Part shown: one piece after another, positions 2,028-26,353 of the stretch
Numbering within the stretch: position 1 is the first letter of the stretch
Layout of the letters: the number at the start of each line of letters is the position of its first letter
DNA from: a virus
Length of the DNA stretch: 64,000 nt
Virus record (IMG/VR): IMGVR_UViG_3300012953_000013
Span: 120,867 to 184,866 of that record
Direction: 5' to 3' (one strand)
Made by a program: the position numbers and the translations under genes
Notes under the pieces: generated by a model
The model's database searches: none
What the model saw: the letters and a program-made list of their open reading frames with translations, nothing else
Told to the model about the DNA's origin: nothing

Positions 2028-2030
2028 GAT

Positions 2031-2330: not shown

Positions 2331-2335
2331 GATTA

Positions 2336-5300: not shown

Positions 5301-5701
5301 TCATGTCCGTCAGTTTGGCTGCTTTTGTCTAAAAAGTCAGTTAAGGGGCCAATAGTACCGCCACCTTCGGCGTCTGGAGTAGAACCATCAGTAATAGTCG
5401 CATAATATGATTTTGCTACTTGCTGAACTCCGGCCATAAAACCATCAGGCATAACCCCATCGACAGCTATATCGATTAGTTCTGGAGTCCCTAAAACTAA
5501 AGGGTCATCCGGCGTTGTTTTTTCAACAGGAGCAGTTGGGTGGTATTGGTTTGTTTCTGTAGACGATAGCATCCACTGTCCCAAAGTCTCCATAGAGGAG
5601 TCTTTGAGATCTGACGTCTCAAATGCAACTGGTTCAGCCGGAGCTTCTTCAGCGGCTGGATCAGATGTTGGCGTAAAATCGCTATCTTTAACTTCAGACA
5701 C
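2336..5701 (-). CDS. 1121-aa tail protein with a tube-initiator-like (gp48/gp54) domain and a hydrophobic transmembrane-like segment
   Basis: GTG start with a GAGGT RBS. The segment IPFYFHDLRTNEILAMHTFIDSFTDSFAPEWS...GRMDDVMIYKKTKRSMGLSF...PIIRLRVGELW resembles tube-initiator domains. Hydrophobic stretch GMIVLAVIAAVAVLVAGIILAAIISLIFLMF. Confidence 0.6.
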   Translation of the reverse strand: MSEVKDSDFTPTSDPAAEEAPAEPVAFETSDLKDSSMETLGQWMLSSTETNQYHPTAPVEKTTPDDPLVLGTPELIDIAVDGVMPDGFMAGVQQVAKSYYATITDGSTPDAEGGGTIGPLTDFLDKSSQTDGHELLGKVVGDVWSGVYETVENASDPGVDLRKKVSDVLKYNRFSPGTESPYIQDKEYSDGMFSIQKTMGRYNEDAEGAAFEELAKVGFSLMLSAAGASDSDANPDSADQTNAIGQGIDVQLQLAKVSRSSLRTENAHGNPFGDHPGNPNTDLKQDGIRRKGANTEGLDAKNAKSYGQLNSYLEPFDGPLPTGMIVLAVIAAVAVLVAGIILAAIISLIFLMFPPGQVEETPEPLPMGAAAGQPDFGDLTIGKWLMKLLRMPILRSGKSFLAAMFYGILQFYFRIIDVISSGYFIIVSRAAIRDLEQISNSIAEADFSNIVGGLESVFVVLDAFATSTTFQFLNTLASLGDIVLLSGGFSGGAMEFSPYTSAQGQPDRLAPGIANLHIKSRTLMGKDPDYRLAWRFGSTPSRYLLPPNVLGANAAMGFNEAFGVAGKMPKGVGRLGEKTQKFGGIAPKDEGSPQSASDDVPARPLGGRYTADERQQFEDELNAYYIPFYFHDLRTNEILAMHTFIDSFTDSFAPEWSNMGGFGRMDDVMIYKKTKRSMGLSFFMVATGPEDMDEMYFAINRLVAMVYPSWSKGTMKKSADGKNTFIMPFSQVPTASPIIRLRVGELWSSNYSIQSLSRLFGLGSSSFTIDSKAPYKDIGVDKQEDMDGKIKNVMDYMENLHAEAQNGPPPYEEAIAANIAVAAGLPMIPGVSKGFAVGSTVIIKPSRYKICKLDVTTVNFKEAFFGKLKVPASQEADRKGKVAGFVIRPVVDVSGGGTENASDNTKTRVKEKARVRYAVVLDEAGPLVKGLKDPANQCVICGDMDLILDHEQAALDAINNTLGSAASAGGLPNPFADPPEPTLFTADGLKDFFGTKEGDISGNSIVRAFHESGGKGIAGAITQLDFDWNLAPWDETPGRRAPTYVKVTMGFSPIHDIPLGLDYDGAIRAPAYNVGGIVRGLFGSGHSLTAETNTKAMLTEALAKLLPPPPEEEDDPKPEGA

Positions 5702-5723
5702 AATTACCTCTTAATATCCTTAA

Positions 5724-6029
5724 TTATCTTCCACCCATTTTTTTCTTAGCAAGTTCCTGGAATCTTTTCTTTCCTTCAGGGGTGCTAAGCATTGTCTTAA
5801 AGTGGTCTAAAACTTTTTGGTATTTTTCTGACTGAATTTTGGCTTCTTTAAGAACTTCAGATTTTTCTACGTCTTGAAGATCTTTAGTTACTTCTTTAAA
5901 CGCAGCAGTTTCTTGTAGAAACTCGAATATATTCAGCTTGTTGATTTCTTCTACAGTTTCTCCGACTCCAAAAGGGCCGCCTCTTTCGTCAAATTTAACT
6001 TTATTTTTTTGTTCGTCTTTTTTACTCAT
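5724..6029 (-). CDS. Hypothetical protein (101 aa, charged, helical)
   Basis: AAGGAG RBS; fills the gap between the tape measure and the next gene. Confidence 0.7.
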   Translation of the reverse strand: MSKKDEQKNKVKFDERGGPFGVGETVEEINKLNIFEFLQETAAFKEVTKDLQDVEKSEVLKEAKIQSEKYQKVLDHFKTMLSTPEGKKRFQELAKKKMGGR

Positions 6030-6038
6030 TTTATCTCC

Positions 6039-9000
6039 TTAAGCTGTTGAGCCTCCAAGTGATGAAACTCGAGAACTTGACCCTCTCAATACTAAATCAC
6101 TCTCAATTAGTGGTGTAGCAACATCCATAGCCTTCATCGTGACATTTAAGCTCATGTTAATAGTAACATTACCATCCGCAATTGTAATATTATCTCGCTT
6201 AACTCTAAGGCTTTCGTTAACTTGCTCTAGAACAGCATCGATATTTAATGGTGTTATATTTGAGAGTCTTGCTGCTTGATCGTTGTATGCTTGAACAATA
6301 TCTGCAATATGTTTTACGCCTTCTCCAACGGCGACCTGATCAAAATCCATAATACCGGATTCTGCAATATCGGCTGCCATATCAGTAAAGCCTTTAGACA
6401 TCCTTCCAAGATCTCTAGCGCTGTTAATCCAACTAGTAGCCATTTCCGGATTAATTGTAAATCCTCCTGAAGCAGCTAAAGTAGCAGCGGTATTAGCCCA
6501 AACATCTAAGCCAATGATATCGGCAACATGATTAACCATTTGAACAATTGCTGTGCTGGCAGCTCCGCCACCTTCAGAAAAATCTTCATTAAGAGCTGAT
6601 TGGTTTTCTTCCCACGCTTTTAAGATTTTTCCAATGCCATTAATCATATCTCCAAACGCTTTGGCTTTTTCTCCCATTCCTTCTGGCATCGCCCGAAGAC
6701 CACGGACCATTGATCGTACCAATCTTGGAATAGTTGGCCCAATTCTATCAAGAAGCGTTGTCATCGCGCCGACGACAGCGTTAATTTTTTCATCTACACC
6801 CTCACCGGTGACTGCACCGACAATTGAGTCCATTGCCCCATGATTTTCTACGACTGCTGTAATTGGTCCCGACATAGCTGAAGCTAAGTTTGCAACTCCA
6901 CCAACCATGCCCGCAATAGCTTCAGCACCCTTAAGCGCTTTTTCATCCATTTTACCAGCCATGCCCACCAGAAGCTCGATCATTCGAGTCATAGTATCGC
7001 CAACAGCTTCAATGAACCTAACAGACATATTAACCATATCATCCATGCTGGTATCACCAAATACTTCGCTGGCTACACCAACCATTGCCATGTCTAGTCC
7101 AAGGCCACCAATAGCTGCAGTGGCTTCTATTACTTTACCAACAATGTCTACAATTTGTGCAGTTCTTTCAGGATCGGCGACAGGCACCCTCATTACAGCA
7201 TCAATAACTCTGCCAACATCATCAAACGCCGTTGATGCAAAGTCTGCTGCAGCAGAAATTCCTTCTTGGATAAACCTTACTACTGGCATAAACAGCCTGA
7301 ATGCCGCGCCAAGAACTGCGAGACCTGCAACTGAAGAGAGTGCTCCCTTCATTACATCAATAGCACGCTCGATTTTGTCCATTCCGCCAGGCATTGCATC
7401 GAAAATCTTGACCATTCTGGCTAGGGCTGTTGCAAATGTACCTGCAGCTGCAACTAATAAATCAGCCCCGGCTTCTAGGCCCGGAACTGCTGCAAGGAGA
7501 ACTGGAATTGCAAGAGTAAGGGCAGCTCCACCGATAGCGAGCCCTGCAATCGCTAAGAAAGTTAATCCCATTGTTCCGAGAATTCCAATAACTCTCATGA
7601 GATCCATTCCGTCAAATACCTTAACCACTTCTCTCAACGCTAGTGCAAACACGCCTCCTGCCACATACAAGAAGGCTGCACCTGCTAGCATACCTAGAGC
7701 ACCAAGACCAAGGGTTATACCACCATCGGCAATCATAGCGGCGCCGCCAAGAGCAGCACCCCAAACTGCAAGTGCTGATAAGCCTATCATCGCGAGGAGC
7801 TCTACAACTCTCAGAAAATCTATCCCTGCGAGGACTTTATCAATTACCATGATGGCAACCGCAAACAATCCGCCCGCTATACCCAAGAATGCTGCAGCGG
7901 CAACCATTCCTAAACCGCCACGGATCATATCTGCTTCTTTGATCTGCTTAGCCATTTTAGAAAGCACCCAAGCAGCTCCAATAGCAGCGCCCATAGCTAA
8001 GAACGCTTTTCCAATATCTTCCCAAGCAATCGGGCTTAAGATAACTGCTGCTGTAGCGATGGCAATAGCCATAATAACAACAGTTCCGCCAATAAATGCA
8101 GCGACTTTCAATCCAGTTATAATAGCTTTGTTTACATTACCTTCGTCAATGTCAGCGATATCGTTAATCGCGCCTGAAAGCCTTTCAGTAAAACTCTTTT
8201 TCGGAAGAGCGTTTTCATCGGATGCATTTTTTGTGTCTTCAGCCATTTTAACGCCTAGCCAAGAAAGAATTTTAGCTTTAAGGTATTCCATTGCAACAGC
8301 TTTAGCTAAAGCAACTGTAAACTGCAGTGCTAACCAACCGGCCATGGCCGTTAATACTATGGCAACCTTACCCTTATGGGCCCACATTACTTGGCCCAAA
8401 GCTTTTGTTAGTTCCCAAATAAGCGTCGGCAAGGCATCCATGAGAGCGCCAAAAGCGTCGCCGAAAGCTCCCATAAGAGCTCCGCCAATCGTTGTTCTAT
8501 CTCCGCCGCCTCCACCAGCACCTGAAAGAGCGTCTGCTAAACCGCGAATCATCTCAACAAGTTTTTCAGTAACCCAGGGTATCATTCCTGTGATAATACC
8601 ACCAAAAGCATTAATCATGTTGACAGCACCCTCTTTCATCTTGTCGACAAAGGTGCCTGTTCTGCTTAAGTGGTCATCAAAGATTCCCATAAGGCTGTCC
8701 ATCAAAGTTTGAACAGCAGCTGCTGGATCTGTAGCTAATTGGCCGAAAAACGTCCTAAAAACTTCTGTGACTTGGCTCATCGTGGTTCGCCACTCGCCTG
8801 GATCGAAAAATCCAGCAAGTCCCTCTAAAAAGTCTTTGACTCCCGGGAACATTTCAACGAACATTTTGCCAACTTCTTTACCGGCTTTGTGGACTTCTCG
8901 AAGCATTCCATAAAAATTCCGAGCCAAAGCAAGGAATTCTTTTGAGTTCATAATGCCATCAACAACGCCCTGGAAGAATGCACTAAATGGGCCGCCCATA

Positions 9001-10562
9001 TTTTCTTTGCCACCACCTAGAGCTTCATGGACTTTATCAATAGATTTAGCCAACACAAGGTTAGCCTCTTCTTGGGAAATCGCACCGGCTGCGGCTGCAT
9101 CAGCAGCTGAATTAAAGTCATCCAATCCAAGCTCAGCATTTTCCGGATCAAAAGCACCAGCCAATGCTTCTTGAGACATCCCTGTGATATCCGCCATTCT
9201 TGCTTTTTCTTGACGGCTCATCTCGTCGAATGATTGGCCTGTCTCTAAGAATGATTGGCGAATCATCTCAGCTTTTTCAGCCGGATCAGCATTCATAAGC
9301 TCCATGGTATCTACAGTCATACCAAAAGTGCCTGCTAATTCACTGGCAGCTTGAGCGGCGCCTTCAAAATCATCAGTTTTTGCTGTGATACCTTGAAGGT
9401 CTTTCATGGCTATACCAAGTTTGGCAGCATAAGCTGCGGTTGATGTTAAAGACTCTACAGACATTCCACCGAAAGTAGCGTAATCTGCGGTCATATCATT
9501 AATATTCTTACCAATACGTTTAGCATCAACACCAAACTGTTGAGAGAGATGAACTGTTCCACGTGCGACATCATCTAGCATCGTGCTAAGTTCTTGGCCA
9601 GAGTGTGCAGCCATAAGTTGCATATTGGACATAGCTTCTGCTTCAATGCCCAAAGCTTTATTAGCTATAACATAAGAATCTATATTTTGCGCAAAATCAT
9701 CAGCAACTTTTCCAAGTGTATCACCAAGCGCTGCCGCGACTTCTCCAGTATATTGAATGGCTGCTGCCATTCCATCAGGTCCACGGCCAAACATTGCAGT
9801 AGCGCTGGCACCTTCCATGCCCATATTTTTAACTGCCGTTTTTACTGCCGAGAACTCAGCACTAGAACGAGATATTTCTTTAGCTACCCCTTCCCATGCA
9901 TTTGCTACTTGGACACCTGCGCTTCCTGCTTGGTGAGCTGCGTCTGCTAAGAGACCCATTCCGCCAGAAATAGCTCCGAGAACTCCCATCCCGACGTTTC
10001 TTACAGCGCTAAATGCTCCGCCGATTACATTTGTAATTTGTGTGAAACCAGAACTTAGGGCTTGGGTCAAGTCTCCTATAGAGATTCCTGCAAGAGCTGC
10101 AGAAAAAGCTTTTGCAGCCACACTTGAGCCTTCAATGTTTTTAGCTACACCCTCGAATGGTTTGATTTTCTTGACTTGATCGAAGATATCACTGAGATTT
10201 TCGGCATCTTCAATGCCCTCTTTGAATTCGTCCCAGAAATCTTTTTGAGTTTTCTTTAGTTTGGCAGAATTTTTCGTAGCATTTTTTAACGCCTCTGCTA
10301 AGTTTGAAGATGCATCGCCAGATCCTGTAGCTGCTTTTTGTGCTGCTTGCAGGGCTGCGGCTAAATTACTCGTATTAGTACTTGATTCTTTAGTGTCGCC
10401 AGCAATTCCCCCCAAGGCTTCTTTAAGAGCTCCTGCTAAATTAGCTTGAGCGCCAAGGGAATTATTTTGGGCATTAATCAGGCTCTGACGGTCAGCCAAC
10501 AATTGTTGGATCTGCCTTTGTAAATTTAGTTGATTTTCTAAATTTTGGGTTTCGTCAGACAT
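6039..10562 (-). CDS. Tail tape measure protein
   Basis: 1507 aa, rich in Ala/Gly/Met and helical, with a hydrophobic central region. Lies downstream of the sheath, tube and chaperone genes. GAGG RBS. Confidence 0.85.
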   Translation of the reverse strand: MSDETQNLENQLNLQRQIQQLLADRQSLINAQNNSLGAQANLAGALKEALGGIAGDTKESSTNTSNLAAALQAAQKAATGSGDASSNLAEALKNATKNSAKLKKTQKDFWDEFKEGIEDAENLSDIFDQVKKIKPFEGVAKNIEGSSVAAKAFSAALAGISIGDLTQALSSGFTQITNVIGGAFSAVRNVGMGVLGAISGGMGLLADAAHQAGSAGVQVANAWEGVAKEISRSSAEFSAVKTAVKNMGMEGASATAMFGRGPDGMAAAIQYTGEVAAALGDTLGKVADDFAQNIDSYVIANKALGIEAEAMSNMQLMAAHSGQELSTMLDDVARGTVHLSQQFGVDAKRIGKNINDMTADYATFGGMSVESLTSTAAYAAKLGIAMKDLQGITAKTDDFEGAAQAASELAGTFGMTVDTMELMNADPAEKAEMIRQSFLETGQSFDEMSRQEKARMADITGMSQEALAGAFDPENAELGLDDFNSAADAAAAGAISQEEANLVLAKSIDKVHEALGGGKENMGGPFSAFFQGVVDGIMNSKEFLALARNFYGMLREVHKAGKEVGKMFVEMFPGVKDFLEGLAGFFDPGEWRTTMSQVTEVFRTFFGQLATDPAAAVQTLMDSLMGIFDDHLSRTGTFVDKMKEGAVNMINAFGGIITGMIPWVTEKLVEMIRGLADALSGAGGGGGDRTTIGGALMGAFGDAFGALMDALPTLIWELTKALGQVMWAHKGKVAIVLTAMAGWLALQFTVALAKAVAMEYLKAKILSWLGVKMAEDTKNASDENALPKKSFTERLSGAINDIADIDEGNVNKAIITGLKVAAFIGGTVVIMAIAIATAAVILSPIAWEDIGKAFLAMGAAIGAAWVLSKMAKQIKEADMIRGGLGMVAAAAFLGIAGGLFAVAIMVIDKVLAGIDFLRVVELLAMIGLSALAVWGAALGGAAMIADGGITLGLGALGMLAGAAFLYVAGGVFALALREVVKVFDGMDLMRVIGILGTMGLTFLAIAGLAIGGAALTLAIPVLLAAVPGLEAGADLLVAAAGTFATALARMVKIFDAMPGGMDKIERAIDVMKGALSSVAGLAVLGAAFRLFMPVVRFIQEGISAAADFASTAFDDVGRVIDAVMRVPVADPERTAQIVDIVGKVIEATAAIGGLGLDMAMVGVASEVFGDTSMDDMVNMSVRFIEAVGDTMTRMIELLVGMAGKMDEKALKGAEAIAGMVGGVANLASAMSGPITAVVENHGAMDSIVGAVTGEGVDEKINAVVGAMTTLLDRIGPTIPRLVRSMVRGLRAMPEGMGEKAKAFGDMINGIGKILKAWEENQSALNEDFSEGGGAASTAIVQMVNHVADIIGLDVWANTAATLAASGGFTINPEMATSWINSARDLGRMSKGFTDMAADIAESGIMDFDQVAVGEGVKHIADIVQAYNDQAARLSNITPLNIDAVLEQVNESLRVKRDNITIADGNVTINMSLNVTMKAMDVATPLIESDLVLRGSSSRVSSLGGSTA

Positions 10563-12691: not shown

Positions 12692-15600
12692 CTAAATCTC
12701 CGTACCATTATTGGTAACAACAAAGTCCAGAGAGATAAATTCGATAGATCTCGTTGGTTGTAAGAAGATCTTACCTCTGATTGTATTGTTTTCCACGTCT
12801 GCCTGAGTGGTGGTTGTGGTATCAATAATAACTTTGAATCTATCAAGTCCCTGCTGCTGCTGGATTCTAGTAAGAACTGGATTAACTGCAGCTGAGAATC
12901 TTGCCAGTGTATCCTCTCGATTAGGCTCGAATAGGAATGTATCTGCGATTCTTCTAACTTTTCTACGAATGTCGATCAGTAGACGTCTTACGTTAACTCT
13001 ATCAAGCGATGAAGCTGCTGCAAGAAGTGTTTTCTGGCCGAATACAACGACCCCAGCCGAAGTTGGGAATTTTGTGATTGGGTTAACATCGGCATCATAG
13101 AGAGAATCTAGATTTCCTCTACTCAAGTTAACCGTCGTTTGGACTACTCTCTTTAGAGCACCTCTAGTAAAACCAGCTGGTGCAAACCAAGGATAAGCAA
13201 CCTTATCATTATGTGCGAAGGCTCCAAGTACTGCTACTGAAGGCGCGCACCTTACATTGGTGTTGGTACCAGGGTCTGTAACTAATACGTCTGGGAAGTA
13301 AGCAGCTCCAAAAGAACTGTCCATTACCCTAGACTTAAAGTCATCAACCGTGTTACCAACGCTGACATTTTGAAGATTGGATGCGGTAACTACATTATTG
13401 AGAGCATCTCTTTCTTCGATATCCATAATGTATATCGCGTCGAATCTCTCTTCCGTCTTAGTCAAGGCGTAATCAGTTACCTTAGTTTCCCTAATGCCTG
13501 GGATAGCAAGAATCTGTACGTCAACGTCGGACTTTTCAGCCATAACATCTAAGGCCTTCATGTAAGTCTTAACCGTTGGACCATCAGCTTGCCCCTGATT
13601 TTCATCATCCATTTCTCTAACACATGCAAGGTTCGAAAGTGATGATTTCTCTTTATCAAAGATATTAACACCGTTGAATCCACCCTGCACTGGGAATGTG
13701 AATTTCAAGAATTTTGTAGAAGCTGGATCGCTAAAGTCCTTAGCAACATCCAAAAATCTTCCCTGGTCTTCAGTTCCGTCTTCTTTTCTCATAGCAGAAG
13801 CTAATTTGCCAGTTCTTCTATATTGAGCAAATGCCCACTCTTTAGAATCAACGACATCAGAAACCGACTTAGTATGAATCTGGATTCTTTCCATCGTGAA
13901 GACGTTATTGTTGAACCTATCAGAATCTAATACTGTTCCTTCAACATCTACTGCACCACGGTTATCTCCAACCCAAGAAGCTCTGTTGACTGTCTGGAAG
14001 TGAGAATAATATCTTGAGAATGATAAAGCGCCGTCTCCAACATTGGAGCTCTTGTTTGGCTCATTCCAAGAAACCAAGTTTTCAAACTGGAATCCCCACG
14101 GAAGTCTAGAATTAACTTCTCTAGATGGGTCGGTACCCAAAGAAATATTTCTTCGAAGAACATTTGGTGGCTCTACTATGCTCTGCATGGCAGCAGCTGA
14201 AATATATCCTTCATCTACGTCGCCATCTTCATTTACGCAAGGGGTACATGCATCACCAGTAAAGATCTCAGACCCTGAGGTTACTAAGTGGTAAGGACCA
14301 GAATATCCAACTGGAAGAGCTGAATTGTCTATGTTTCTATTGGTAACGTCTGAATGCATTTCAACTCTAATAAGTCTCGATACGTTAGGATGAGTACCTT
14401 CAACAACCACTCTCTGGTTTCCAGCCATTTTATCAAAATCGTAATAAATGTTATAGTCACCAATTCTTCTTGCGATGTAGTTATCAGATCCTGGGTCTAA
14501 ATTGACTCCTGGGAATACTTCTAATGCAGCATCTTCACTAGGCGGAACTCCGTCTGGTGGATATATTCTCTTAACGAGAACATCGAAAGATCCAAACGAG
14601 TTATCTAGTTTTCCATTTTTAAGATTATCAATCTGAATTCTAAAGTCTTCGCTACCATTCTTTCCGTCATCTAAAGCATGAATCTTGAAAAGAGTTTTGC
14701 TGTTAGCGCCGAATTTTTGAGATGTAACCCATGGAGAGAATGCTGTTCTGAATCTGTCCTGGAATCCTTCAAAGTTTGGTACCGTTGCTGAACCAGCATT
14801 TCTATCAAGCGAGCTAGTCATTAAGAATGCGATTGGCTCCATATTTGAACCTGTTGGAACCCAATCTGCACCACCAGCTAAAATACCCGATCCAGTTACT
14901 ACTGCAACGTTTGGATGGATTGGATAATAGTTGTAAAGCAGGTGACCGGCTTCTTGAATCTTAAGTGGATCAGTATTTAAAATGTTTGGCAAGTATGTCG
15001 GATTCAAAGGAGAAAGCGACGCGGTTACTCTGTTTGGATATGCTTCAGTATCAATATGCCCGTTAAGCAACATGGTGAACTGATAATTGGAAGTACTAGA
15101 AATATTAACGTTTCCAATCCAACCTCCAGCTCCAGTTCCTTGATCATCAGCAGCATCAGACCCCGGTTCATTACTAGCGTAAGATCCACTTAGAGAAGCA
15201 ATAACTCCTGACGGAGTCATGATTACTCCGAGGAGAATCGGGTGTGCTAATCCTTCACTAAAGTCTCCCGTTCCTCCAGCTAAACTATCGGCAACTCCAC
15301 CAGCAGATGGAATTGCAATTGCTCCGCCGCCATCTACAACTTCTGCAAGATCTATGCTGTTTCCAATTGTACCAGTGGTATCCGCAGTTAAATCAGTATC
15401 ACCAATTACAGTACCCTCGGCAGCGGTTAAACTATCAATACCGTTTGTTGCACCATCAGCAAAGTCAGCTCCATAAGTTGCAACTGAAGCATCGGCCGTT
15501 CCATTAATAGCAGCTCTAAGATTGGTGGCTGATGTAGCTGTATCAGATTCAGCAAGTACATGAATTTGATTAGTTCCACCAGCTGCTCCGATTGGATCTG

Positions 15601-16270
15601 CCTTAAAAATAATTCTAACGGTTCCACCAGCACCACCGAAATCACTACCATAACCAGCGGGTATAACAACTGTAATTTCATCATCTGGAGCAGGAATTCC
15701 AGTTAAGCCAATAGCATCATCTAAAGATGCAGCTTCTCCTGCTGTTACTTGAGTATCCTGAATTCCAGAATCGCTGAGGAATGTACTCCCATTTGATTCT
15801 GAAAGGAAAGCACCAAGCATGTAGGTTCTACCAAGAGGGGTTGAATCGCCTCCTGCTACTGCATATGGGTTGTCTCCGACAAATCCGTTTCCACCAACTA
15901 GCCGTTGGCCAACGGTAAAACCAGCGTTTTTAACTCCGCCAGCCTCAATCGAATTTCCATCTGCATCAGCCGTTCCAGCTGTTGACCTTTTAACTCCTGT
16001 ACCGACTCCGAGCACTCGAAGGAATGTTCCCGATCGAGAATTCTTCATCCACTCGTACATTGCCAGTGGTCCAAGTTTCTGTCCATCAGTAGCACCAAAA
16101 ATTGCTACAAAGTCTTGCCAGGTCGCCACAGTCTGGGGTACGAATGCAGGACCTTGTAGCGAAGTGCCGATGACACCTGCTGGAGTCCCCTGCGGTTTGA
16201 TCGCTGTGGGTCCTGACAGATCAATTTCTGTTGTGCCTACCCCGGGGCTTCTAAATGTAAGTTCTGCCAT
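12692..16270 (-). CDS. Tail sheath protein, paralogue B (T4 gp18-like)
   Basis: 1192 aa. N-terminus FRSPGV...PAGVIGTSLQGPAFVP. C-terminal sheath motifs YPWFAPAGFTRG, INPI, VFGQKTL, LDRVNVRRLL, LFEPN, GKIFLQPTRSIEFI. Confidence 0.93.
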   Translation of the reverse strand: MAELTFRSPGVGTTEIDLSGPTAIKPQGTPAGVIGTSLQGPAFVPQTVATWQDFVAIFGATDGQKLGPLAMYEWMKNSRSGTFLRVLGVGTGVKRSTAGTADADGNSIEAGGVKNAGFTVGQRLVGGNGFVGDNPYAVAGGDSTPLGRTYMLGAFLSESNGSTFLSDSGIQDTQVTAGEAASLDDAIGLTGIPAPDDEITVVIPAGYGSDFGGAGGTVRIIFKADPIGAAGGTNQIHVLAESDTATSATNLRAAINGTADASVATYGADFADGATNGIDSLTAAEGTVIGDTDLTADTTGTIGNSIDLAEVVDGGGAIAIPSAGGVADSLAGGTGDFSEGLAHPILLGVIMTPSGVIASLSGSYASNEPGSDAADDQGTGAGGWIGNVNISSTSNYQFTMLLNGHIDTEAYPNRVTASLSPLNPTYLPNILNTDPLKIQEAGHLLYNYYPIHPNVAVVTGSGILAGGADWVPTGSNMEPIAFLMTSSLDRNAGSATVPNFEGFQDRFRTAFSPWVTSQKFGANSKTLFKIHALDDGKNGSEDFRIQIDNLKNGKLDNSFGSFDVLVKRIYPPDGVPPSEDAALEVFPGVNLDPGSDNYIARRIGDYNIYYDFDKMAGNQRVVVEGTHPNVSRLIRVEMHSDVTNRNIDNSALPVGYSGPYHLVTSGSEIFTGDACTPCVNEDGDVDEGYISAAAMQSIVEPPNVLRRNISLGTDPSREVNSRLPWGFQFENLVSWNEPNKSSNVGDGALSFSRYYSHFQTVNRASWVGDNRGAVDVEGTVLDSDRFNNNVFTMERIQIHTKSVSDVVDSKEWAFAQYRRTGKLASAMRKEDGTEDQGRFLDVAKDFSDPASTKFLKFTFPVQGGFNGVNIFDKEKSSLSNLACVREMDDENQGQADGPTVKTYMKALDVMAEKSDVDVQILAIPGIRETKVTDYALTKTEERFDAIYIMDIEERDALNNVVTASNLQNVSVGNTVDDFKSRVMDSSFGAAYFPDVLVTDPGTNTNVRCAPSVAVLGAFAHNDKVAYPWFAPAGFTRGALKRVVQTTVNLSRGNLDSLYDADVNPITKFPTSAGVVVFGQKTLLAAASSLDRVNVRRLLIDIRRKVRRIADTFLFEPNREDTLARFSAAVNPVLTRIQQQQGLDRFKVIIDTTTTTQADVENNTIRGKIFLQPTRSIEFISLDFVVTNNGTEI

Positions 16271-16304: not shown

Positions 16305-19300
16305 CTACACGAACAATACGCCGCTATTTGTTATAATAAAATCAATTGCGATAAATTCGATTGATCTCGTTGGTACAACAACAATTCTTCCGTTAAGCCT
16401 ATTTTGTTCCACATCGTCTGTAGTATTATTAGTACTGTCACAGACAACCGCGAACTTTTCAATACCCTGTTGGGATTGAACTAAGGCTAAGATTGGAGCA
16501 ATCTGTCCAACAAACCTCTGTCTTGTTGCTGGCGTGTTAGGTTCAAAAAGAAGTTTATCTGCAATTTGAACAACGAGCCTCTTCACTTCTAAGAGCATTC
16601 TTCGAACATTAACTCTATCTAGTGCCGACTTGGCTTTTTGTAGAGTTTTCTGACCGAATATTACGAATCCGCCCTGCGGGAAGTTAGCAATTGGGTTAAT
16701 TCTAGCATCATAGAGAGTATCTCTATCAGCTGTACTTAATCTTACTTCAGTGTTAACCACGGTACCTAAAGAACCACGATTGAATCCTGCTGGAGCAAAC
16801 CATGGATATGCAACCTGGTCATTATAACCAAGAGCTCCATAAGCCACTACAGAAGAGGGAACCCTAACGTTCATATTATTGATAGGATCAGAAATATAAA
16901 CGTCTGGATAGTAAGTTGCTGCGTAGTTATTATCAAACCCGCGTCCCTCAAACTGCTCTGCGGTTTCTCTAGGGTTGCTAAATGCATCTGAGTCATCGAA
17001 AAGTCTGTTTTCATCTTCGTCATATTGCTGAATATCCATTACGAACATTGCCATCGAATAATCTTGATTTAATCTTGCAGCGTGATCTGTAACGAATGGA
17101 TCTCTAATTCCTGGTATAGCTAACAAGTTTGTGTTAACTATCATTGGATCTGTCATTATTTCGCATGCTTTTCTGTATGAGAAAATAACGTTATTAAGAG
17201 ATCCAGCACCCATCATTGTGCCGTCATCAGTACCTGCTAATCCAAGTCCTCCCGTGAAATCTGAACCAGCTTTTCCACCAGCATCGGTAGAAGCCGCTCT
17301 ATCTCTCATTAGCCTAATATCTTTATCAAGAATGTTCAGCCCATCAAAACCTCCATAGAAAAGGTTGGTAAACTTAGCATAGTTTGTAAATCTATTAAAC
17401 TTAATAGAGCTTGATTGTATTAACGATGCGAACGTAAGCCTATTACCCCACCCAAGCGGATCAGGAATCGTGTAATCGCTTCCATCTGGCTCTCCATCTC
17501 TTAAGTAGAAAGCCTGCATCATGTGCTCATTAGCTGAGCCTGTTATCGTATTAAGACTAACCTCGGTATTGGTCAAGGCAACCTTTGCTAGCGTAAACTT
17601 GTTATTATTGAATACGTCAGCGCCTGTGCCTGATACCAGGTTGTCACATTTTTGAATACCATTAAATCTTGTGTATGCATTAACGAGAGGGTTGAATACT
17701 CCACCAGCATTTGGATCTAGTGTTGGTGTTGCTATTCCAGAAGTACTGTAAGAAGAACTAAGTGGAATTCTAGCAGTCATTGTTCCCCAATATAGTCTTG
17801 GGTCAATGCGCTCATTTTCACCAACTTGACCCTGGTATGTCAAATCGCTTGATTTTGTTTTTCCTCTAGTAACCTTGCAGCGGAATGGAAGTGGAGGAAC
17901 AACAGCACCTGTTAACAATAGAGCCATTTCTTGGTCATCGTTTTCTCCACCCGACATCATTCTCTGGTTACCAGCTTCTTCAGTTGTAACAACTTTTCCA
18001 TTGGCGGTTAGACCAGTGAACCAATCTGTAAGAGTATCATTTGTCTTTAAGACTGGCATGCCTCGGAATCCGAATGGCATAGAAGTTGCAGGAACCTGTT
18101 TTCTATATACCGCATCATTGACAATAACTCTGATGTTAGCTGACTTGTTTGGATATTTTCCAGAAACGACTAGTCGTCTTTCTGCAGGATCCTCAGCATC
18201 AAAGTCATATTTTGCTTTCATGTCACCGATTTGCTTTCCAATGAACCTATCACTATTTGGATCTAAAGATAGATTCGGGAATGTTTCTACAAATTCTTTT
18301 GACGTATCTAGATCGTGAAGTTTTCTAACTTCTACGTTAAATGTTCCGTATTGGTCGTTTTCATCAGTAGAAGCGACCAAGTTGCTAATGGATATTTTTA
18401 GTTGCTCATTAGCATAAGCTCCATCACTGAGAGCTTCAAAATAGAATAGATCGTGCTCTTGAGTTCCGAACGGCTGCGATATGAAATCGGTAGTTCTCGG
18501 AGTTGTATATCTCGTATCGAATCTACCAAAAGAATCTACCCAATCATCTCCAAGCCCAACAGCATTTTCTACTGACGACCCTGAAATAATTCCAATAGAA
18601 TTATCCCTCCAGCTCACTGGAGCTAGCTCATCTTCGACTGCGTAGTCTAAATAAAGGATATGGTTTGATTCTTCAAATAAGTCTGGTTCTGAGTTTAGTG
18701 ACTTCCCAATATAATGCGCACTGGCCGGATTCAAAGAAGCTGTATAGATTCTTAGTCCCGGAACGTTATCATCATTTCCCCATGCTTGACCAGCAGAAGA
18801 AGAAACAATAAATTTGAACGTCTGGAACTGAGCATTGGTATCAGCTTTTGCAGTATTATCTACCGTCATCTGCGTAGCTAAACACTTCGTAGACGTTGAT
18901 CCTCCAACCCATGAAGCATCGATATGCTGGTCATAACTTGCGATCAAAGACCTAGATCCCGTAGAGTTCAAAATAACTCCGCGGACAAGGTTTACTGTGT
19001 TCTCAGCAGCTTCTCCGAAATCATCATCTCTAGTAGAAAGGTCAGGATAACTCTTGTTTGACGTAAACAGCGGAAATCCAACGCCCTCTTCAGATGCTGA
19101 CACATAATGTGCAGCAACCAAAAATTGCACAGCACCCTGTGCGGTTGGATGAGCGTCTGCTGCATCTCCGCAAGCCTGTGATGTTACTCTAAATCCTGCG
19201 TTTTTTACGATTCCATAAGAGACAGTATTACTCATATCGGTAGAAGTAGCATTAGCTCCTGCACCGAGTACTCTTGTGTATGTTACTGCATCTTTATGTT

Positions 19301-19523
19301 TTAAATATTCTCTAACTGCGTAGGGTCCGAATCTATCGGGGTCAAGAGTTCCGAATCTTGTTTCGAAATCTGCGAAAGATCCCACTGATACCGGAACAAA
19401 TGCAGGCCCTTTTTCTGCAGTACCAATAACTCCTGCAGGAGTTCCGAGCGGGGATTTCTGTCTCTGTGAAAGATCGATTTCCTGCTCAAAAAATCCTGGA
19501 GATCGGAATGTTTGTTCTGCCAT
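16305..19523 (-). CDS. Tail sheath protein, paralogue A (T4 gp18-like)
   Basis: 1072 aa. FRSPGF...PAGVIGTAEKGPAFVP; YPWFAPAGFNRG, IFGQKTL, LDRVNVRRMLL, LFEPN, PTRSIEFIAIDF. Confidence 0.93.
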   Translation of the reverse strand: MAEQTFRSPGFFEQEIDLSQRQKSPLGTPAGVIGTAEKGPAFVPVSVGSFADFETRFGTLDPDRFGPYAVREYLKHKDAVTYTRVLGAGANATSTDMSNTVSYGIVKNAGFRVTSQACGDAADAHPTAQGAVQFLVAAHYVSASEEGVGFPLFTSNKSYPDLSTRDDDFGEAAENTVNLVRGVILNSTGSRSLIASYDQHIDASWVGGSTSTKCLATQMTVDNTAKADTNAQFQTFKFIVSSSAGQAWGNDDNVPGLRIYTASLNPASAHYIGKSLNSEPDLFEESNHILYLDYAVEDELAPVSWRDNSIGIISGSSVENAVGLGDDWVDSFGRFDTRYTTPRTTDFISQPFGTQEHDLFYFEALSDGAYANEQLKISISNLVASTDENDQYGTFNVEVRKLHDLDTSKEFVETFPNLSLDPNSDRFIGKQIGDMKAKYDFDAEDPAERRLVVSGKYPNKSANIRVIVNDAVYRKQVPATSMPFGFRGMPVLKTNDTLTDWFTGLTANGKVVTTEEAGNQRMMSGGENDDQEMALLLTGAVVPPLPFRCKVTRGKTKSSDLTYQGQVGENERIDPRLYWGTMTARIPLSSSYSTSGIATPTLDPNAGGVFNPLVNAYTRFNGIQKCDNLVSGTGADVFNNNKFTLAKVALTNTEVSLNTITGSANEHMMQAFYLRDGEPDGSDYTIPDPLGWGNRLTFASLIQSSSIKFNRFTNYAKFTNLFYGGFDGLNILDKDIRLMRDRAASTDAGGKAGSDFTGGLGLAGTDDGTMMGAGSLNNVIFSYRKACEIMTDPMIVNTNLLAIPGIRDPFVTDHAARLNQDYSMAMFVMDIQQYDEDENRLFDDSDAFSNPRETAEQFEGRGFDNNYAATYYPDVYISDPINNMNVRVPSSVVAYGALGYNDQVAYPWFAPAGFNRGSLGTVVNTEVRLSTADRDTLYDARINPIANFPQGGFVIFGQKTLQKAKSALDRVNVRRMLLEVKRLVVQIADKLLFEPNTPATRQRFVGQIAPILALVQSQQGIEKFAVVCDSTNNTTDDVEQNRLNGRIVVVPTRSIEFIAIDFIITNSGVLFV

Positions 19524-21551: not shown

Positions 21552-22721
21552 TTATCCTATCACTATGCATTTACCCATGGGTATTGGAATTGTTTTTAGA
21601 ACTCGCTGGAGATTTTCTGCTTTAGTAGCTTCTCCCTCCACCATCTTCTCGTACGTTAAACTCTCTAACCATTCACTCATACTAGTTTTTAACTTTTCTT
21701 TATCCTCTCTTCCTTGCGTTACTAATGTTGATCCATCTAACTGCAGATCTCCCCCAGGGATTGGAACGCTAGAAAACTTAGATCTAATCAACCCAAGAAG
21801 TTCTTTACAGTTAGCTAATGTGTAATCGAATATCCACTGTTTTCCCATACTATTAATAGTTGAATAGCTTATCCACCCAAATGGAACATTTGAGGGTCCC
21901 GCAACACCATGAATACTGGAATCATTATAAGCTGGGTCAAATGGATCAGAACCAAAGCCAACTCTAAACCAAAGCTTTTTTGGATCTGAAGAAGTTGGAG
22001 TTGGAAATATTCTTATTTGAGTGCCTTGCGTTCTATAAGAGAAATTTGATCTTCTTACTCTATTAGACAAATCCATTTGTCCGCCGCGAAGAACATCTTC
22101 AAATACGGGTAGTACATAAAATACAGTCTCTGGAGTAAATGACTCAAAACTAAATTCGTTGTTTAAGTAATTTATTGCAGAGGTTGTATCGAAAAATCTA
22201 TAAGCAGCCTGAGGGCTGAAATGATAGACTTCTAAAATCTTTAATTTTCCAGCGCCATTACCGTTTAAGCTAGACGAAAATATAAGGTTTCCACTTTCAT
22301 CTTTAAGCGAACTATAGATATCGTAATCTTGCTGATCTTTCTTTAATTGAATTGAACCAGAAACAGTATTATATGAACCACCAATTCCAGCTTCCTGAGA
22401 GTATGGTTCTGCTAGCCTTAAAATAAAGTCCATAGTTTCATGGGCATATTTCCCTTGAACGTTTGAACCTGTAGACATCCCCATAAGATTAGAAAGCTGT
22501 GATTTAGCTTGATATTCATTTATAAGAGTACCATATTCCATGGACGACTCTTCAAAACAAGCCCAAATCTGTTTCTTAGTCAATTCAACTGATAGAATAT
22601 CATCGCCCAGCTTTCTTTTTACATAAGTGACTAAAGAATCAGCGTCTTGTTGAAAGTCTGAATCGTCGTCAAATATACCAAAAGGTGTTGGTTTTAAAGT
22701 TTTATAAAAAGCTGTTGCCAT
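21552..22721 (-). CDS. Neck / head-tail adaptor protein (T4 gp13-like)
   Basis: 389 aa with YVKRKLGDDILSVELT, WIFDYTLANCKELLGLIRSKF and PGGDLQLDG; first gene of the neck cluster. Confidence 0.7.
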   Translation of the reverse strand: MATAFYKTLKPTPFGIFDDDSDFQQDADSLVTYVKRKLGDDILSVELTKKQIWACFEESSMEYGTLINEYQAKSQLSNLMGMSTGSNVQGKYAHETMDFILRLAEPYSQEAGIGGSYNTVSGSIQLKKDQQDYDIYSSLKDESGNLIFSSSLNGNGAGKLKILEVYHFSPQAAYRFFDTTSAINYLNNEFSFESFTPETVFYVLPVFEDVLRGGQMDLSNRVRRSNFSYRTQGTQIRIFPTPTSSDPKKLWFRVGFGSDPFDPAYNDSSIHGVAGPSNVPFGWISYSTINSMGKQWIFDYTLANCKELLGLIRSKFSSVPIPGGDLQLDGSTLVTQGREDKEKLKTSMSEWLESLTYEKMVEGEATKAENLQRVLKTIPIPMGKCIVIG

Positions 22722-22790
22722 TTAGATACTCCAATGAATCTCCTAACTAAATATAAAAGAAGATCCGTTAAATTCTTGGGTATCTAAATG
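22719..22790 (-). promoter_or_regulatory. Long RNA hairpin covering the RBS and AUG of the neck gene
   Basis: CATTTAGATAC (22719-22729) and GTATCTAAATG (22780-22790) form a perfect 11-bp inverted repeat, extended by CCAA/TTGG. An inner stem GGAUCUUCU/AGGAGAUUC is also possible. The ATATTTA motif sits in the loop. Confidence 0.7.
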
Positions 22791-22863: not shown

Positions 22864-24006
22864 TCACATTCCGCCAATAATAGAGATAGCGATTAATCCT
22901 GGAAGCCTGTCTTTAAGGTATACTCCAGAGAATAAAGTATTTGTTCTTCCACCAACATATGAAAATGCAGCTTCTATTTTATTACTAACTTCTGGATCAC
23001 CAGCCATTTCTGGAGTAACAACTAAAAGCATAACTCCAGTTTCTGAAGTTTTTGCTGGCGCAGGGCAAGGAGACGACTTAATACAGCCTTGGTATAAAGT
23101 AGAGCCAAGATCTCTAGCGCTTACATCTCTTATAACTGTACTACCGACAAGCATTCTTCCGGGGGCACTAAGACATTTTTCTAAATCTTTAGAATCGAAT
23201 GTTTGAATTGGTGATGTTTCATCTGCTAATTTAAGTACTTGTGAAATTAATTTTGCAAAATTCTTATTTGCACTTGGGTACATGCCTAGCATTCCAACTT
23301 TACCGCGAAGTAGCTGCAACTGTCTTTCATTATCTAAAACAATATGTGGAGAACTAGTAATATCTTTTAAAACAGATTTACTATTACTAGCGATTGTTGG
23401 ATTTAATAGTTCTTGAGCAGAAGGTTGAGTTACTACATAAACAACTTTTCCTGAAGCTCCAACAGAACTCAAATATCTCTCTAAAGACTTATGAAGGCTG
23501 TGGCACGCGCTACCTGTTCCGCCGCCGCCACCAGCCAATACGAAAAGCCAATCTACTTTCCCGATCCGGGTTCTGAGTGTATCTTCTACTAGAGCACCAT
23601 TATTACTAAGGACATCTTTCCCAAGGTCCACGTCCTTGCCTACGCCATCTGCTCCGGGTATTAACAGAAAATGGTCTTCAGGAACTCCATCGGGCTGGTC
23701 TTTTTCAGTAGTGTTTACCAAAACGGTTTTATTAAACCCTAAATCCAAAAACGCTTTAGCTAGTTTTCCACCACCACCACCAACTCCAATAAAAGCGCAA
23801 GAAATCGCTGAGGGTGCATCATTTTCTGGTAGCATTCTCTCATCAGCATCAGCTGGATCTTCATCATAGGCTTCTACGAAATCAAAATCGTCATCGTACA
23901 AGCTGTCTTTATCTTTTCCACTCATTTCTTTTTCTTCCTTTTTCAAATTAACTTTAGAGTTGACGGGCATAGCTGGTTTATATGCTTCTTTGAGTGTACA
24001 TGCCAT
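22864..24006 (-). CDS. Tubulin/FtsZ-superfamily GTPase (PhuZ/TubZ-like)
   Basis: FIGVGGGGGK, VNTTEKD, signature LAGGGGGTGS, IVLDN and a T7-loop-like FDSKDL. The start could instead be the ATG at 23933. Confidence 0.88.
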   Translation of the reverse strand: MACTLKEAYKPAMPVNSKVNLKKEEKEMSGKDKDSLYDDDFDFVEAYDEDPADADERMLPENDAPSAISCAFIGVGGGGGKLAKAFLDLGFNKTVLVNTTEKDQPDGVPEDHFLLIPGADGVGKDVDLGKDVLSNNGALVEDTLRTRIGKVDWLFVLAGGGGGTGSACHSLHKSLERYLSSVGASGKVVYVVTQPSAQELLNPTIASNSKSVLKDITSSPHIVLDNERQLQLLRGKVGMLGMYPSANKNFAKLISQVLKLADETSPIQTFDSKDLEKCLSAPGRMLVGSTVIRDVSARDLGSTLYQGCIKSSPCPAPAKTSETGVMLLVVTPEMAGDPEVSNKIEAAFSYVGGRTNTLFSGVYLKDRLPGLIAISIIGGM

Positions 24007-24054
24007 GAAATACCCTTATTCATATTCATAATTATTCACTTAAAGCAAAAAGCA

Positions 24055-24345
24055 TTAAATTAAACGGGCTGCTCTAGCTGGATAAGTCACAGACTCTAAT
24101 GCTGATTTTAGCTTTTTTCTATCTACTTTTTTAACTTTTAGATCGGCTACTTCTTTTTCTAAAGCAGCGCAACGAGCTTCTAGAGACTTAACTAAAGACT
24201 CTAAAGTAGATGCTGTAGATTTAGTTGATTTCTTGGCTGTAGTTGTTTTCTTAGCTGGGATGCTTTTTTTGGCTGTCGTTTTTTTAGAAACTACTTTTTC
24301 TTCAGTGGTTGTTTCTTTAACAGCTTCTGTTGTTTCTGTTGACAT
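24055..24345 (-). CDS. Small Lys/Thr-rich protein with a C-terminal coiled coil
   Basis: GGAGG RBS; KKTTAKKSIPAKKTTTAKKSTK followed by heptads LESLVKSLEARCAALEKEVADL. Confidence 0.75.
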   Translation of the reverse strand: MSTETTEAVKETTTEEKVVSKKTTAKKSIPAKKTTTAKKSTKSTASTLESLVKSLEARCAALEKEVADLKVKKVDRKKLKSALESVTYPARAARLI

Positions 24346-24392
24346 ACGTCCTCCATGGCTATAATAATATAATAATAATTATGCATTTAAAA

Positions 24393-24429
24393 TAAAAAAA
24401 AGAGAGGGACCCGCTAAGGGGTCCCTCTC
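24393..24429 (-). terminator. Intrinsic terminator after the major capsid gene
   Basis: 11-bp stem GAGAGGGACCC/GGGTCCCTCTC followed by a U8 tract on the minus strand. Confidence 0.9.
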
Positions 24430-24454: not shown

Positions 24455-26353
24455 TTAGATTACGTTAAGGTCTTGAACGGTTACTGTACCGTAGAAGTCA
24501 GAACGAACCATCTTCTTACCATATCGAGTCATAACACCCTTACGTGGGGTGAAGTCCTCAGGAGCGAAGATTGTTGGTGTGACAATAAGTGGTACGTATG
24601 GAGCATAGACATATCCAGTCTCCAAGTAGCTTCCGCCCTTGTATCCGACGAGGACCTTGTTCCGTGGGAAGTAAGGATCCTTGTAGACCGTGAAGCGGTT
24701 ACTAAGAGTACCAACCTGCTCAGCACCAAGGCTCATTGGCTGGCTAACCTGACCATCACCATCAAGGCTGTACTTCGGACGATAAAGGACCGAAGCCTCG
24801 AGGATAGTAGCGATATCAGGGCTTACTACGATAAAGTTTGCCGAACCGCGAAGAGTAAGTCTGTGAATCTCATTAGCGACGTCAATGACTGTCTCTACGA
24901 GAGTCTCATACCATTCTCTAACTGTTCCTGTGAAGGAAGCGTTTGCGGGAACTCCACCACTTCCACCAGTTGTCTTATTGACAAAGTTACCTGGTGCGCG
25001 GCTCCAGTAATAGTTGGTCTTAGCCTGAGTAAGGAGATCGTTAAGAATCTCTCTATCAAGCTCTAGAGCAACCTGCTCGGAGAGGATCTGAGTAAGCTCA
25101 ACCTCAGCGTCAAGGCTGTGGTAAGCATTCAAGTCCTGCGCGAGTTCTGGCGACCAGCGAGCGCGGAGCTTACGGGTTACAGCAGTAACTGCAATTGATT
25201 CGATCTTGATATCGATCTCTGGAATCTCCGGAGATGGGGTTGTACCAAAATCAGACTCAAAGGTTGGAATAACTAGAGTATCTCCAGTTCCAGTACTGAG
25301 ACTTGGATCAAGCGGGTAGTTAACTGTCATCAAAGCAGAGTTAGCTACTGGCTCGCCAATAACACCTGAGACTACGCAAAGAAGTCCAGTTCCAGAAGCC
25401 GAAAGATCAGCTAAAGGATCTGCGGTGAATTTACCACCAGCAACTGTACCAATCTGGTTAAGTCTGCGAACATTGAGAAGATTTGTACTTCCCTGAATTT
25501 GCTGACCCTGCAGATCGTTACCAACTACTGCCAGTCCGTCTGGATCTGTTCCAAGTGCATCTGAAACAAGTGCGAACTCTTTAACCAGAGTAGCATCAGC
25601 ATCAGTAAAGTTATCAGTTGCTACAACAACGAAACTGTATACACCGCCACCAGCGTTACCACCTGGGAAGTCTCCATTATCGTTGTCTTGGATGTCTCTT
25701 GTAATTACTGGGTCGAACTGGAAGAGTTTTCCATCAGATCCTGTAGCAAATCCAGACTGACCACCAACCATTGTTCCACCGGCACCAAAAGCACCAGAAA
25801 GAAGAAGATCGGCTTCGCCTGTAAGTGCGAAGGAAGAGTGGACTCTAGAATATCCAGAACCAGCAAGGTTGTATTGACCACCTACACCCAAAGATCCAGA
25901 GCGTACGCCCTTTCCTGGAGGTGCATTGTAGATTGAAGAACCTGTGGTGTAGGTAGCAGCATTAGTGCCCTCTCTACCAACGTTGGTTCCATACGTGTAG
26001 TCAAGATAGAATAAAAGGCCAGAAGGAAGGCTCATAGGCTGGATAGAAACCAGCTCATTTGCGATCAATCCACCGAATACTCTACGGACGATTGGGAATG
26101 CGATGTTCGTGAATCCACGAATATCACCACTGGAAGTGAGGTTTCCACCACCAGTTGAAAGGCTGTTAGCCTCTCTAAGAACTTGGGCAGCCTGATTTTC
26201 AAGCAGAGTAGCCATGTTCTCGCGGGTTGTTCCTTCAAGACCTCTAAGAAGTCCTGTTCGGGCCCACTTTTCGATTAGTCGACGGTTCTGGGTTCCGACG
26301 TGTCGTTGCCGAATACCCTCTGTCAACTGATTGAGTGTAAATTTCTTACTCAT
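24455..26353 (-). CDS. Major capsid protein (T4 gp23-like, HK97 fold)
   Basis: 632 aa with IEKWARTGLLRGL, FPIVRRVF, VSIQPMSLPSGLLFY, TRKLRARWSPELAQDLNAYHSLDAEVELT, GYVYAPYVPL, FTPRKGVMTRYG. Confidence 0.95.
   Translation of the reverse strand: MSKKFTLNQLTEGIRQRHVGTQNRRLIEKWARTGLLRGLEGTTRENMATLLENQAAQVLREANSLSTGGGNLTSSGDIRGFTNIAFPIVRRVFGGLIANELVSIQPMSLPSGLLFYLDYTYGTNVGREGTNAATYTTGSSIYNAPPGKGVRSGSLGVGGQYNLAGSGYSRVHSSFALTGEADLLLSGAFGAGGTMVGGQSGFATGSDGKLFQFDPVITRDIQDNDNGDFPGGNAGGGVYSFVVVATDNFTDADATLVKEFALVSDALGTDPDGLAVVGNDLQGQQIQGSTNLLNVRRLNQIGTVAGGKFTADPLADLSASGTGLLCVVSGVIGEPVANSALMTVNYPLDPSLSTGTGDTLVIPTFESDFGTTPSPEIPEIDIKIESIAVTAVTRKLRARWSPELAQDLNAYHSLDAEVELTQILSEQVALELDREILNDLLTQAKTNYYWSRAPGNFVNKTTGGSGGVPANASFTGTVREWYETLVETVIDVANEIHRLTLRGSANFIVVSPDIATILEASVLYRPKYSLDGDGQVSQPMSLGAEQVGTLSNRFTVYKDPYFPRNKVLVGYKGGSYLETGYVYAPYVPLIVTPTIFAPEDFTPRKGVMTRYGKKMVRSDFYGTVTVQDLNVI

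Follow-up and report, generated by a model that had tools for sequence, protein, structure and literature searches.

Why does a phage keep a tubulin gene among its head and neck genes, and what could a tubulin that lacks a C-terminal tail do there? The question is raised by a 64,000-nucleotide stretch of viral DNA (hereafter the window), the last 64 kb of the 184,866-bp IMG/VR contig IMGVR_UViG_3300012953_000013 (CheckV completeness 71%), which carries a gene, single copy in the genome, for a tubulin/FtsZ-superfamily GTPase, here called P0001. To our knowledge, studies of phage tubulins have covered only PhuZ and the TubZ of phage c-st; the first is linked to the phage nucleus, and the second acts in prophage partition. 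A sequence-only reading of the window had described P0001 as a distinct, late-expressed tubulin with complete GTPase motifs that stops at the end of its core fold and bears an acidic N-terminal extension, and had proposed that it may traffic capsids or organize assembly and that it polymerizes differently, possibly through that extension. We found that P0001 is, close to certainly, a functional member of the superfamily. The GTPase motifs, the stop at the end of the core and the acidic extension were all confirmed in a gene on the minus strand, and the tail-less C-terminus and acidic N-terminal motif proved to be properties of a whole family.

22864-24006, minus strand: tubulin/FtsZ-superfamily GTPase gene (P0001), an open reading frame of 380 amino acids
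23821-24006, minus strand: N-terminal extension, residues 1-62, made up of a start peptide, a variable-length linker, an acidic motif and MLPEN
23839-23895, minus strand: acidic short linear motif DDDFDFVEAYDEDPADADE, residues 38-56, conserved in 123 sequences
23764-23787, minus strand: T1 nucleotide-binding loop GVGGGGGK, residues 74-81, with G76 and G79 invariant in a 48-sequence wide alignment
23509-23532, minus strand: T4 tubulin signature GGGGGTGS, residues 159-166, with G163 and G165 invariant and G161 at least 90% conserved in the 48-sequence alignment
23182-23199, minus strand: T7 loop FDSKDL, residues 270-275, with the two catalytic aspartates, aligning with NVDFAD of FtsZ

Core fold and termini of P0001

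Homologues whose alignments begin at residue 1 support the start codon. Conservation was assessed in an 18-sequence alignment, the wide alignment of 48 sequences and a close-family alignment of 123 sequences. Both T7 aspartates, D271 and D274, are invariant in the 18- and 123-sequence alignments; in the wide alignment this holds for D271, with D274 conserved in at least 90% of sequences. Pfam Tubulin (PF00091) matched residues 71-231 of P0001 (E 1.2e-5, 26.1 bits) and matched all 48 aligned relatives at E<0.01, the best at 6e-16. Searching PDB sequences with P0001 retrieved FtsZ (E 1e-6), CetZ (0.003) and TubZ (0.05), and the family profile gave the same order (FtsZ 40 bits, E 2e-9; CetZ 36; TubZ 30); PhuZ was absent from the PDB matches even with the family profile.

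An AlphaFold2 model computed from the 48-sequence alignment had a mean predicted local distance difference test (pLDDT) score of 89.7, with residues 63-380 above 94 and residues 1-60 disordered. The predicted core (63-380) has the two-domain fold of the superfamily, namely a Rossmann-like GTPase domain, helix H7 and an activation domain. Foldseek matched the model to FtsZ, TubZ and CetZ equally (approximately E 1e-19), and none of its BFVD structure matches was above 18% identity. In the model the last core strand spans residues 371-378, and the chain (...IAISIIGGM) ends two residues later. The end of the chain thus coincides with the final strand of the activation domain, which leaves P0001 without helix H11 and without the tail that TubZ and PhuZ have. 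Within the core, residues 307-315 (approximately 23062-23088) form a family-specific loop, GC[LI][KR]SSPCP, in which C308 and C314 are invariant; it is not found in relatives of 25-33% identity and may serve as a site for interactions or be sensitive to redox state. This loop and the basic H3 region (K124, R145 and R147) are candidate binding sites for the acidic N-terminal motif.

The missing tail is shared by 123 of 123 close members, 117 of which have just 5-10 residues after GLIA[IL][ST]. At the other end of the protein, a start peptide resembling MAS[ST][VI][KR] occurs in most lineages and most of the 18-sequence alignment (MACTLK in P0001). It is followed by a linker whose length differs by about 100 residues across the family and then by the motif DFDFVEAYDDDP, which is present in all 18 aligned sequences and also in the 42-46% identical relatives P0122 and P0123. 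Among the 123 close members, F41, F43 and N62 are invariant, as are the GTP-binding and T7 residues, and D40, D42, V44, A46, Y47, D48, P51 and D55 are at least 90% conserved. Across 122 members, the N-terminal region has a median length of 74 amino acids and a net charge of -13. Relatives of 25-33% identity also carry an acidic-hydrophobic N-terminal peptide (for example, FDIPDL), seen in 41 of 62 versus 20 expected from shuffles, and 30 of 71 have a short basic C-terminal tail of the form P..RL..L. Because distant relatives share it, the acidic N-terminus predates the close family, and loss of the C-terminal tail is particular to the family.

The N-terminal region is disordered in both AlphaFold2 models. 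Neither run docked the motif on the core; in the second, which used the 123-sequence alignment, its pLDDT was below 50. As modeled, the undocked motif gives no support for intramolecular binding and is no evidence against binding in trans; absence of docking is what would be expected of a linear motif that binds in trans. The different polymerization mode proposed by the sequence-only reading is not required, because FtsZ and CetZ cores assemble without a tail.

Extent and relationships of the family

A search of 5.8 billion proteins with P0001 returned more than 1000 matches, which were metagenomic. The top 120 were 65-100% identical, 353-478 amino acids long and from marine sources, on contigs of up to 308 kb, and the carriers were marine T4-like phages of 185-293 kb. 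At the level of 50%-identity representatives, 603 proteins were found at E<1e-3, comprising one close cluster (70%), two proteins at 42-46% identity and then many full-length proteins at 25-33%. Besides Tubulin, which matched every one of the 48 relatives, Tubulin_2 matched 31 and TubZ-like_C (PF22453) 15, and FtsZ_C matched none of them; P0001 itself matched neither TubZ_C nor TubZ-like_C at E<0.01. In the ESM Atlas, the clusters of distant relatives are labeled 87-100% viral.

A tblastn search with P0001 and the distant relative P0145 found nothing in 50,697 phage records (INPHARED). No cultured phage or isolate genome with the gene was found, cultured T4-like relatives also lack it, and no PHROG matched P0001. 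Among 185,579 species genomes, the gene appeared on four contigs of metagenome-assembled genomes only, the bin labels of which conflict (Flavobacteriales, Hyphomonadaceae and Halobacteriovorax), and therefore no host can be named. Nor did we find a description of this tubulin family in the literature, where jumbo-phage reviews to 2026, a 2023 FtsZ/tubulin phylogeny and a marine jumbo-phage survey were covered. P0001 is thus a member of a large, virus-only family of uncultured marine T4-like jumbo phages.

The sequence-only reading held P0001 to be neither an ordinary PhuZ nor a host FtsZ, and this was borne out by several comparisons. Against the NCBIfam FtsZ equivalog TIGR00065, P0001 scored 27.8 bits versus a cut-off of 295.2; phiKZ PhuZ gave a BLASTP E value of 2.2 against P0001 and no match with phmmer. 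Against the wide group, Bacillus thuringiensis RepX scored 87 bits and Escherichia coli FtsZ 62, and against the close family they scored 27 and 40.8 bits, respectively; PhuZ scored nothing. In a quick maximum-likelihood tree, the close family, P0122 and P0123 formed one clade on a long stem (Shimodaira-Hasegawa-like approximate likelihood ratio test, 87), RepX nested in the wider viral group, and FtsZ and PhuZ lay on very long branches. Because the references were one FtsZ, one RepX and one PhuZ, all on long branches, the tree indicates the separateness of the clade only and does not fix its deep position.

Genomic context and expression signals

In the window, the minus-strand order is large terminase, portal, head maturation protease (phrog_207), a 557-amino acid protein, gp23-like capsid gene, terminator, 96-amino acid gene (p96), tubulin, head-tail adaptor, 227-amino acid gene, gp15-like gene, two giant sheath paralogues and baseplate hub. 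The tubulin gene thus lies two genes downstream of the capsid gene and directly upstream of the neck gene, as first described. The elements closest to it are as follows:

24455-26353, minus strand: gp23-like major capsid protein gene (Pfam Gp23, 3.3e-77; phrog_138)
24402-24429, minus strand: intrinsic terminator directly after the capsid gene, with an 11-bp stem containing 8 GC pairs, then T8
24055-24345, minus strand: gene for p96, a 96-amino acid Lys-rich coiled-coil protein, in the variable slot between capsid gene and tubulin
24029-24035, minus strand: promoter-like motif ATAATTA, 29 nucleotides upstream of the tubulin ATG
22719-22790, minus strand: hairpin between tubulin and neck genes (fold z-score -2.6)
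21552-22721, minus strand: head-tail adaptor (neck) gene directly downstream of tubulin (phrog_211, 2e-10)

The terminator splits the capsid transcript from the p96-tubulin unit. Farther downstream, the sheath paralogues stand in tandem on the minus strand (16305-19523 and 12692-16270; 1072 and 1192 amino acids); both match phrog_23 in their C-terminal third only, and the pair is kept in relatives. In genome G000, outside the window (positions 1-10280), approximately 20 small proteins begin with MKITKRQLRRIIKE-like tags, which resemble T4 capsid-targeting sequences and have an L/I-x-E cleavage site.

A survey of 80 IMG/VR loci distinguished at least four arrangements of the tubulin gene, contexts A to D. 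In context A (approximately 31 of the 80 loci, including the window), the order is capsid, 0-3 variable genes, tubulin, neck, p227-like, gp15 and two sheath genes, and the neck gene is syntenic with tubulin in every locus. Tubulin identity within context A is 67-91%, as compared with 62-89% for capsid, 58-89% for neck and 46-84% for sheath proteins; the tubulin is conserved to the same degree as these proteins or more strongly. In contexts B, C and D, neither a capsid nor a neck gene is found within 10 kb, and the neighbors are tRNA genes, PhoH, a sigma-70 region-4 protein or others. Five long genomes of 242-293 kb represent these contexts (three are at least 92% complete and one has terminal repeats); each of them has a gp23-type capsid gene 70-100 kb from the tubulin. 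The capsid-tubulin-neck synteny singled out by the sequence-only reading is therefore real in one lineage and absent from three others.

Several further observations concern these loci. The slot between capsid and tubulin genes is hypervariable in context A (L006, L007, L009, L056, L067, L069, L072, L076 and L079), where relatives carry either one to three paralogous Ala/Thr/Gly-rich proteins starting MPKVT..GLVQ..GSG, possibly head decoration proteins, or a 297-amino acid protein. The p96 gene was found in just one related locus, L005, and we rejected p96 as a TubR-like partner on that ground. In loci of contexts B and C (L012, L024, L025, L054, L058, L064, L066, L078 and L082), tubulin is immediately downstream of a tRNA gene, with the T-arm and acceptor 3' end (GGTTCGA(T/C)TCC...CCACCA) seen in the 70 nucleotides upstream of tubulin. 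Locus L049 contains a truncated, 106-amino acid duplicate of the tubulin N-terminus (through GIGGGG) approximately 130 nucleotides upstream of the full-length gene; the duplicate is nearer to the window allele than to the adjacent gene and resembles what an allele replacement through recombination would leave behind.

The ATANTTA motif noted upstream of tubulin by the sequence-only reading is present, and it marks the structural genes of this phage. Among genes with an intergenic gap, 13 of 18 in the morphogenetic window have it at most 70 nucleotides upstream, as compared with 12 of 73 in the rest of the genome (Fisher p 1e-5); it occurs 1.7 +/- 1.2 times in shuffled sequence and 3 times in the antisense orientation. 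The p96 gene has its own ATAATTA (24376-24382, at -37). Across loci, the motif precedes tubulin in 18 of 24 of context A, 13 of 19 of B and 9 of 11 of D (40 of 54 together), and in 0 of 12 of C. Scanning for sigma-70-type promoters around the tubulin gene found sites no more numerous than in shuffled sequence. Early-region nonstructural genes (for example, at approximately 11.8, 20.7 and 99.5 kb of genome G000) have an extended -10 element, GTGnTATAAT, that is sigma-70-like; the pair of motifs suggests two promoter classes.

The predicted hairpin at 22719-22790 would pair the Shine-Dalgarno sequence and AUG of the neck gene, with ATATTTA (22748-22754) in its loop. The same arrangement recurs in L006-L010 and L041 (z -2.5 to -6.6) with different stem sequences. 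Comparable hairpin control is known for the T4 genes e, soc and 49, and by this analogy the structure looks like T4-style translational silencing of read-through transcripts, so that the neck gene should not be translated from transcripts that extend beyond the tubulin gene. A T4-like hairpin with the motif in its loop supports reading ATANTTA as a promoter. Since tubulin has its own copy of the motif, it is probably made together with the virion proteins. Two marine metatranscriptome runs covered the capsid gene only, not tubulin, and were uninformative on tubulin expression.

Proposed function and known systems

On balance, and with somewhat more confidence than doubt, we favor as the best overall explanation a functional tubulin that carries an N-terminal tether and builds an infection-stage cytoskeleton. 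Head-to-tail assembly is most likely because the core is complete, with its GTP-binding loops and both T7 aspartates. The invariant T7 residues, together with strong purifying selection, make such GTP-dependent polymerization likely. Subunits of the predicted core, which has the full two-domain fold and every GTP-binding loop, would join into protofilaments, each completing the GTPase site of the next, as happens with FtsZ and CetZ cores that have no tail. The tether would have moved from the C-terminus, where FtsZ, TubZ and PhuZ have it, to the N-terminus, and would consist of the conserved terminal peptide, the disordered linker of variable length and the invariant acidic-aromatic motif, which probably binds in trans either the next subunit or a phage-encoded partner. 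As a best guess, the resulting cytoskeleton would position or move proheads, DNA or assembly sites in a cell without a phage nucleus.

Several observations weigh against this explanation. Across the family, the gene does not keep its place between capsid and neck genes, and because three other lineages have it far from the capsid gene, its position does not argue for a capsid-related role and offers no functional clue. No neighboring gene is common to all four contexts, and thus none next to tubulin is a conserved partner. ATANTTA is called a promoter by association only, and a weak, uninformative search of the 185 kb found no T4 gp55-like late sigma factor. The neck-gene hairpin would also fit a tubulin made earlier, or far more abundantly, than the neck protein. 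The Pfam Tubulin score of P0001 is under the gathering score of 33, which reflects the limited reach of the model to a divergent family and is no evidence against the fold.

Three other explanations were weighed. P0001 might be a TubZ-type replicon-partition motor that segregates phage genomes in a carrier or pseudolysogenic state through a small DNA-binding adaptor. TubZ/RepX proteins are the nearest characterized relatives of the wider viral clade, in which RepX nests (87 bits against the wide group), 15 of 48 relatives match TubZ-like_C, and a small candidate adaptor exists both here, in the Lys-rich 96-amino acid protein directly upstream, and in another lineage, with small Hc1-like proteins upstream. 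These upstream genes are not conserved across lineages, however, p96 being shared with one other locus only, and the TubR-binding tail of TubZ is missing from all 123 members. In addition, a structural-gene motif precedes the gene, the phage is T4-like and presumably lytic, and no centromere-like repeat array turned up, although no search aimed at such repeats was made. We regard a partition motor as unlikely. Slightly less probable still is a decoy of host FtsZ, a tail-less look-alike that co-assembles with or caps FtsZ and blocks division because it cannot bind membrane anchors. FtsZ does provide the best single-sequence PDB matches (E 1e-6; profile E 2e-9), E. coli FtsZ outscores RepX against the close family (40.8 versus 27 bits), and P0001 has no C-terminal anchor peptide. 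Yet identity to FtsZ is just approximately 20%, and with a TIGR00065 score of 27.8 bits, where the cut-off is 295, shared polymer interfaces are unlikely. In the tree, a long stem sets the clade apart from FtsZ, and a simple cap would not need the invariant N-terminal motif or both T7 aspartates, all of which are kept.

The least likely of the three is that P0001 associates with the prohead or virion, where it would be packaged or would help assembly as a chaperone, and that its N-terminal extension is a targeting sequence or propeptide cut by a T4-type prohead protease. The gene lies between capsid and neck genes in approximately 31 of 80 loci, the phage encodes a head maturation protease (phrog_207) and approximately 20 proteins with a T4 capsid-targeting-like tag, and an L-x-E site (MLPE|N) occurs just before the core. 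On the other hand, tubulin and capsid genes are far apart in three other lineages, the gene is missing from cultured T4-like relatives, and a dynamic polymer is what the invariant GTPase and T7 residues suggest. P0001 has no MKITKRQLRRIIKE tag, and the P1 Glu of the L-x-E site is Asp in several members; for these two reasons, we rejected the idea that the extension serves as a capsid-targeting tag or as a propeptide for the prohead protease.

Over these rivals we favor, if only tentatively, a cytoskeleton that serves in positioning or trafficking and is tethered by the N-terminal motifs. More speculative, and rather doubtful as a whole, is the extended proposal that nucleus-less marine T4-like jumbo phages build a GTP-driven cytoskeleton in which an N-terminal DFDF tether couples the filament to proheads, packaging machinery or DNA. 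If true, this would be a second, independently organized phage cytoskeleton with reversed tail topology, and its spread in the ocean could match that of PhuZ in Chimalliviridae. P0001 represents a third phage tubulin, under strong selection and common in ecologically important marine T4-like jumbo phages. If P0001 polymerizes, the reversed tail would offer a natural test of how terminal peptides control tubulin/FtsZ assembly and cargo coupling, and the DFDF motif and its binding site would be a concrete target for biochemical study.

The known systems nearest to P0001 are TubZ/RepX, FtsZ, CetZ and PhuZ. TubZ/RepX proteins, from type III partition systems of Bacillus plasmids and Clostridium phage c-st (PDB 4ei7, 2xka and 4xcq), are 15-20% identical to P0001, and TubZ structures extend beyond the aligned range. 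TubZ has helix H11 and a TubR-binding C-terminal tail, whereas P0001 has neither and bears an N-terminal acidic motif instead. Type III systems have an adjacent tubR gene, and no such conserved neighbor exists in the four contexts (tubC centromere repeats were not searched). TubZ also resides in plasmids or prophages, and P0001 in a T4-like phage. FtsZ is closer in sequence, giving the best matches with alignable T1-T7 loops, and both proteins combine a core, a disordered linker and a conserved terminal peptide. In FtsZ, however, linker and peptide are C-terminal and in P0001 they are N-terminal; P0001 moreover has no FtsZ_C Pfam match, is phage-encoded and falls far below the FtsZ equivalog cut-off. 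CetZ (PDB 4b45 and 3zid) is an archaeal, cellular cell-shape protein with a different terminal architecture.

PhuZ of Chimalliviridae goes with chimallin. Neither this genome, which is 71% complete, nor five relatives, three of which are at least 92% complete, gave a chimallin match, weak evidence from a single-sequence search with no positive control. Pfam TubZ_C_2 (PF22334) matches phiKZ PhuZ at 1.7e-37 and does not match P0001. Like P0001, PhuZ is a phage-encoded tubulin of jumbo phages with an acidic terminal peptide; in PhuZ this peptide is C-terminal and reportedly needed for filament contacts, whereas in P0001 it is N-terminal. The presence of P0001 in a T4-like jumbo phage suggests that phages lacking a phage nucleus, too, make a cytoskeleton of their own, and if P0001 polymerizes, viral cytoskeletal organization of the cell would not be limited to nucleus-forming phages.
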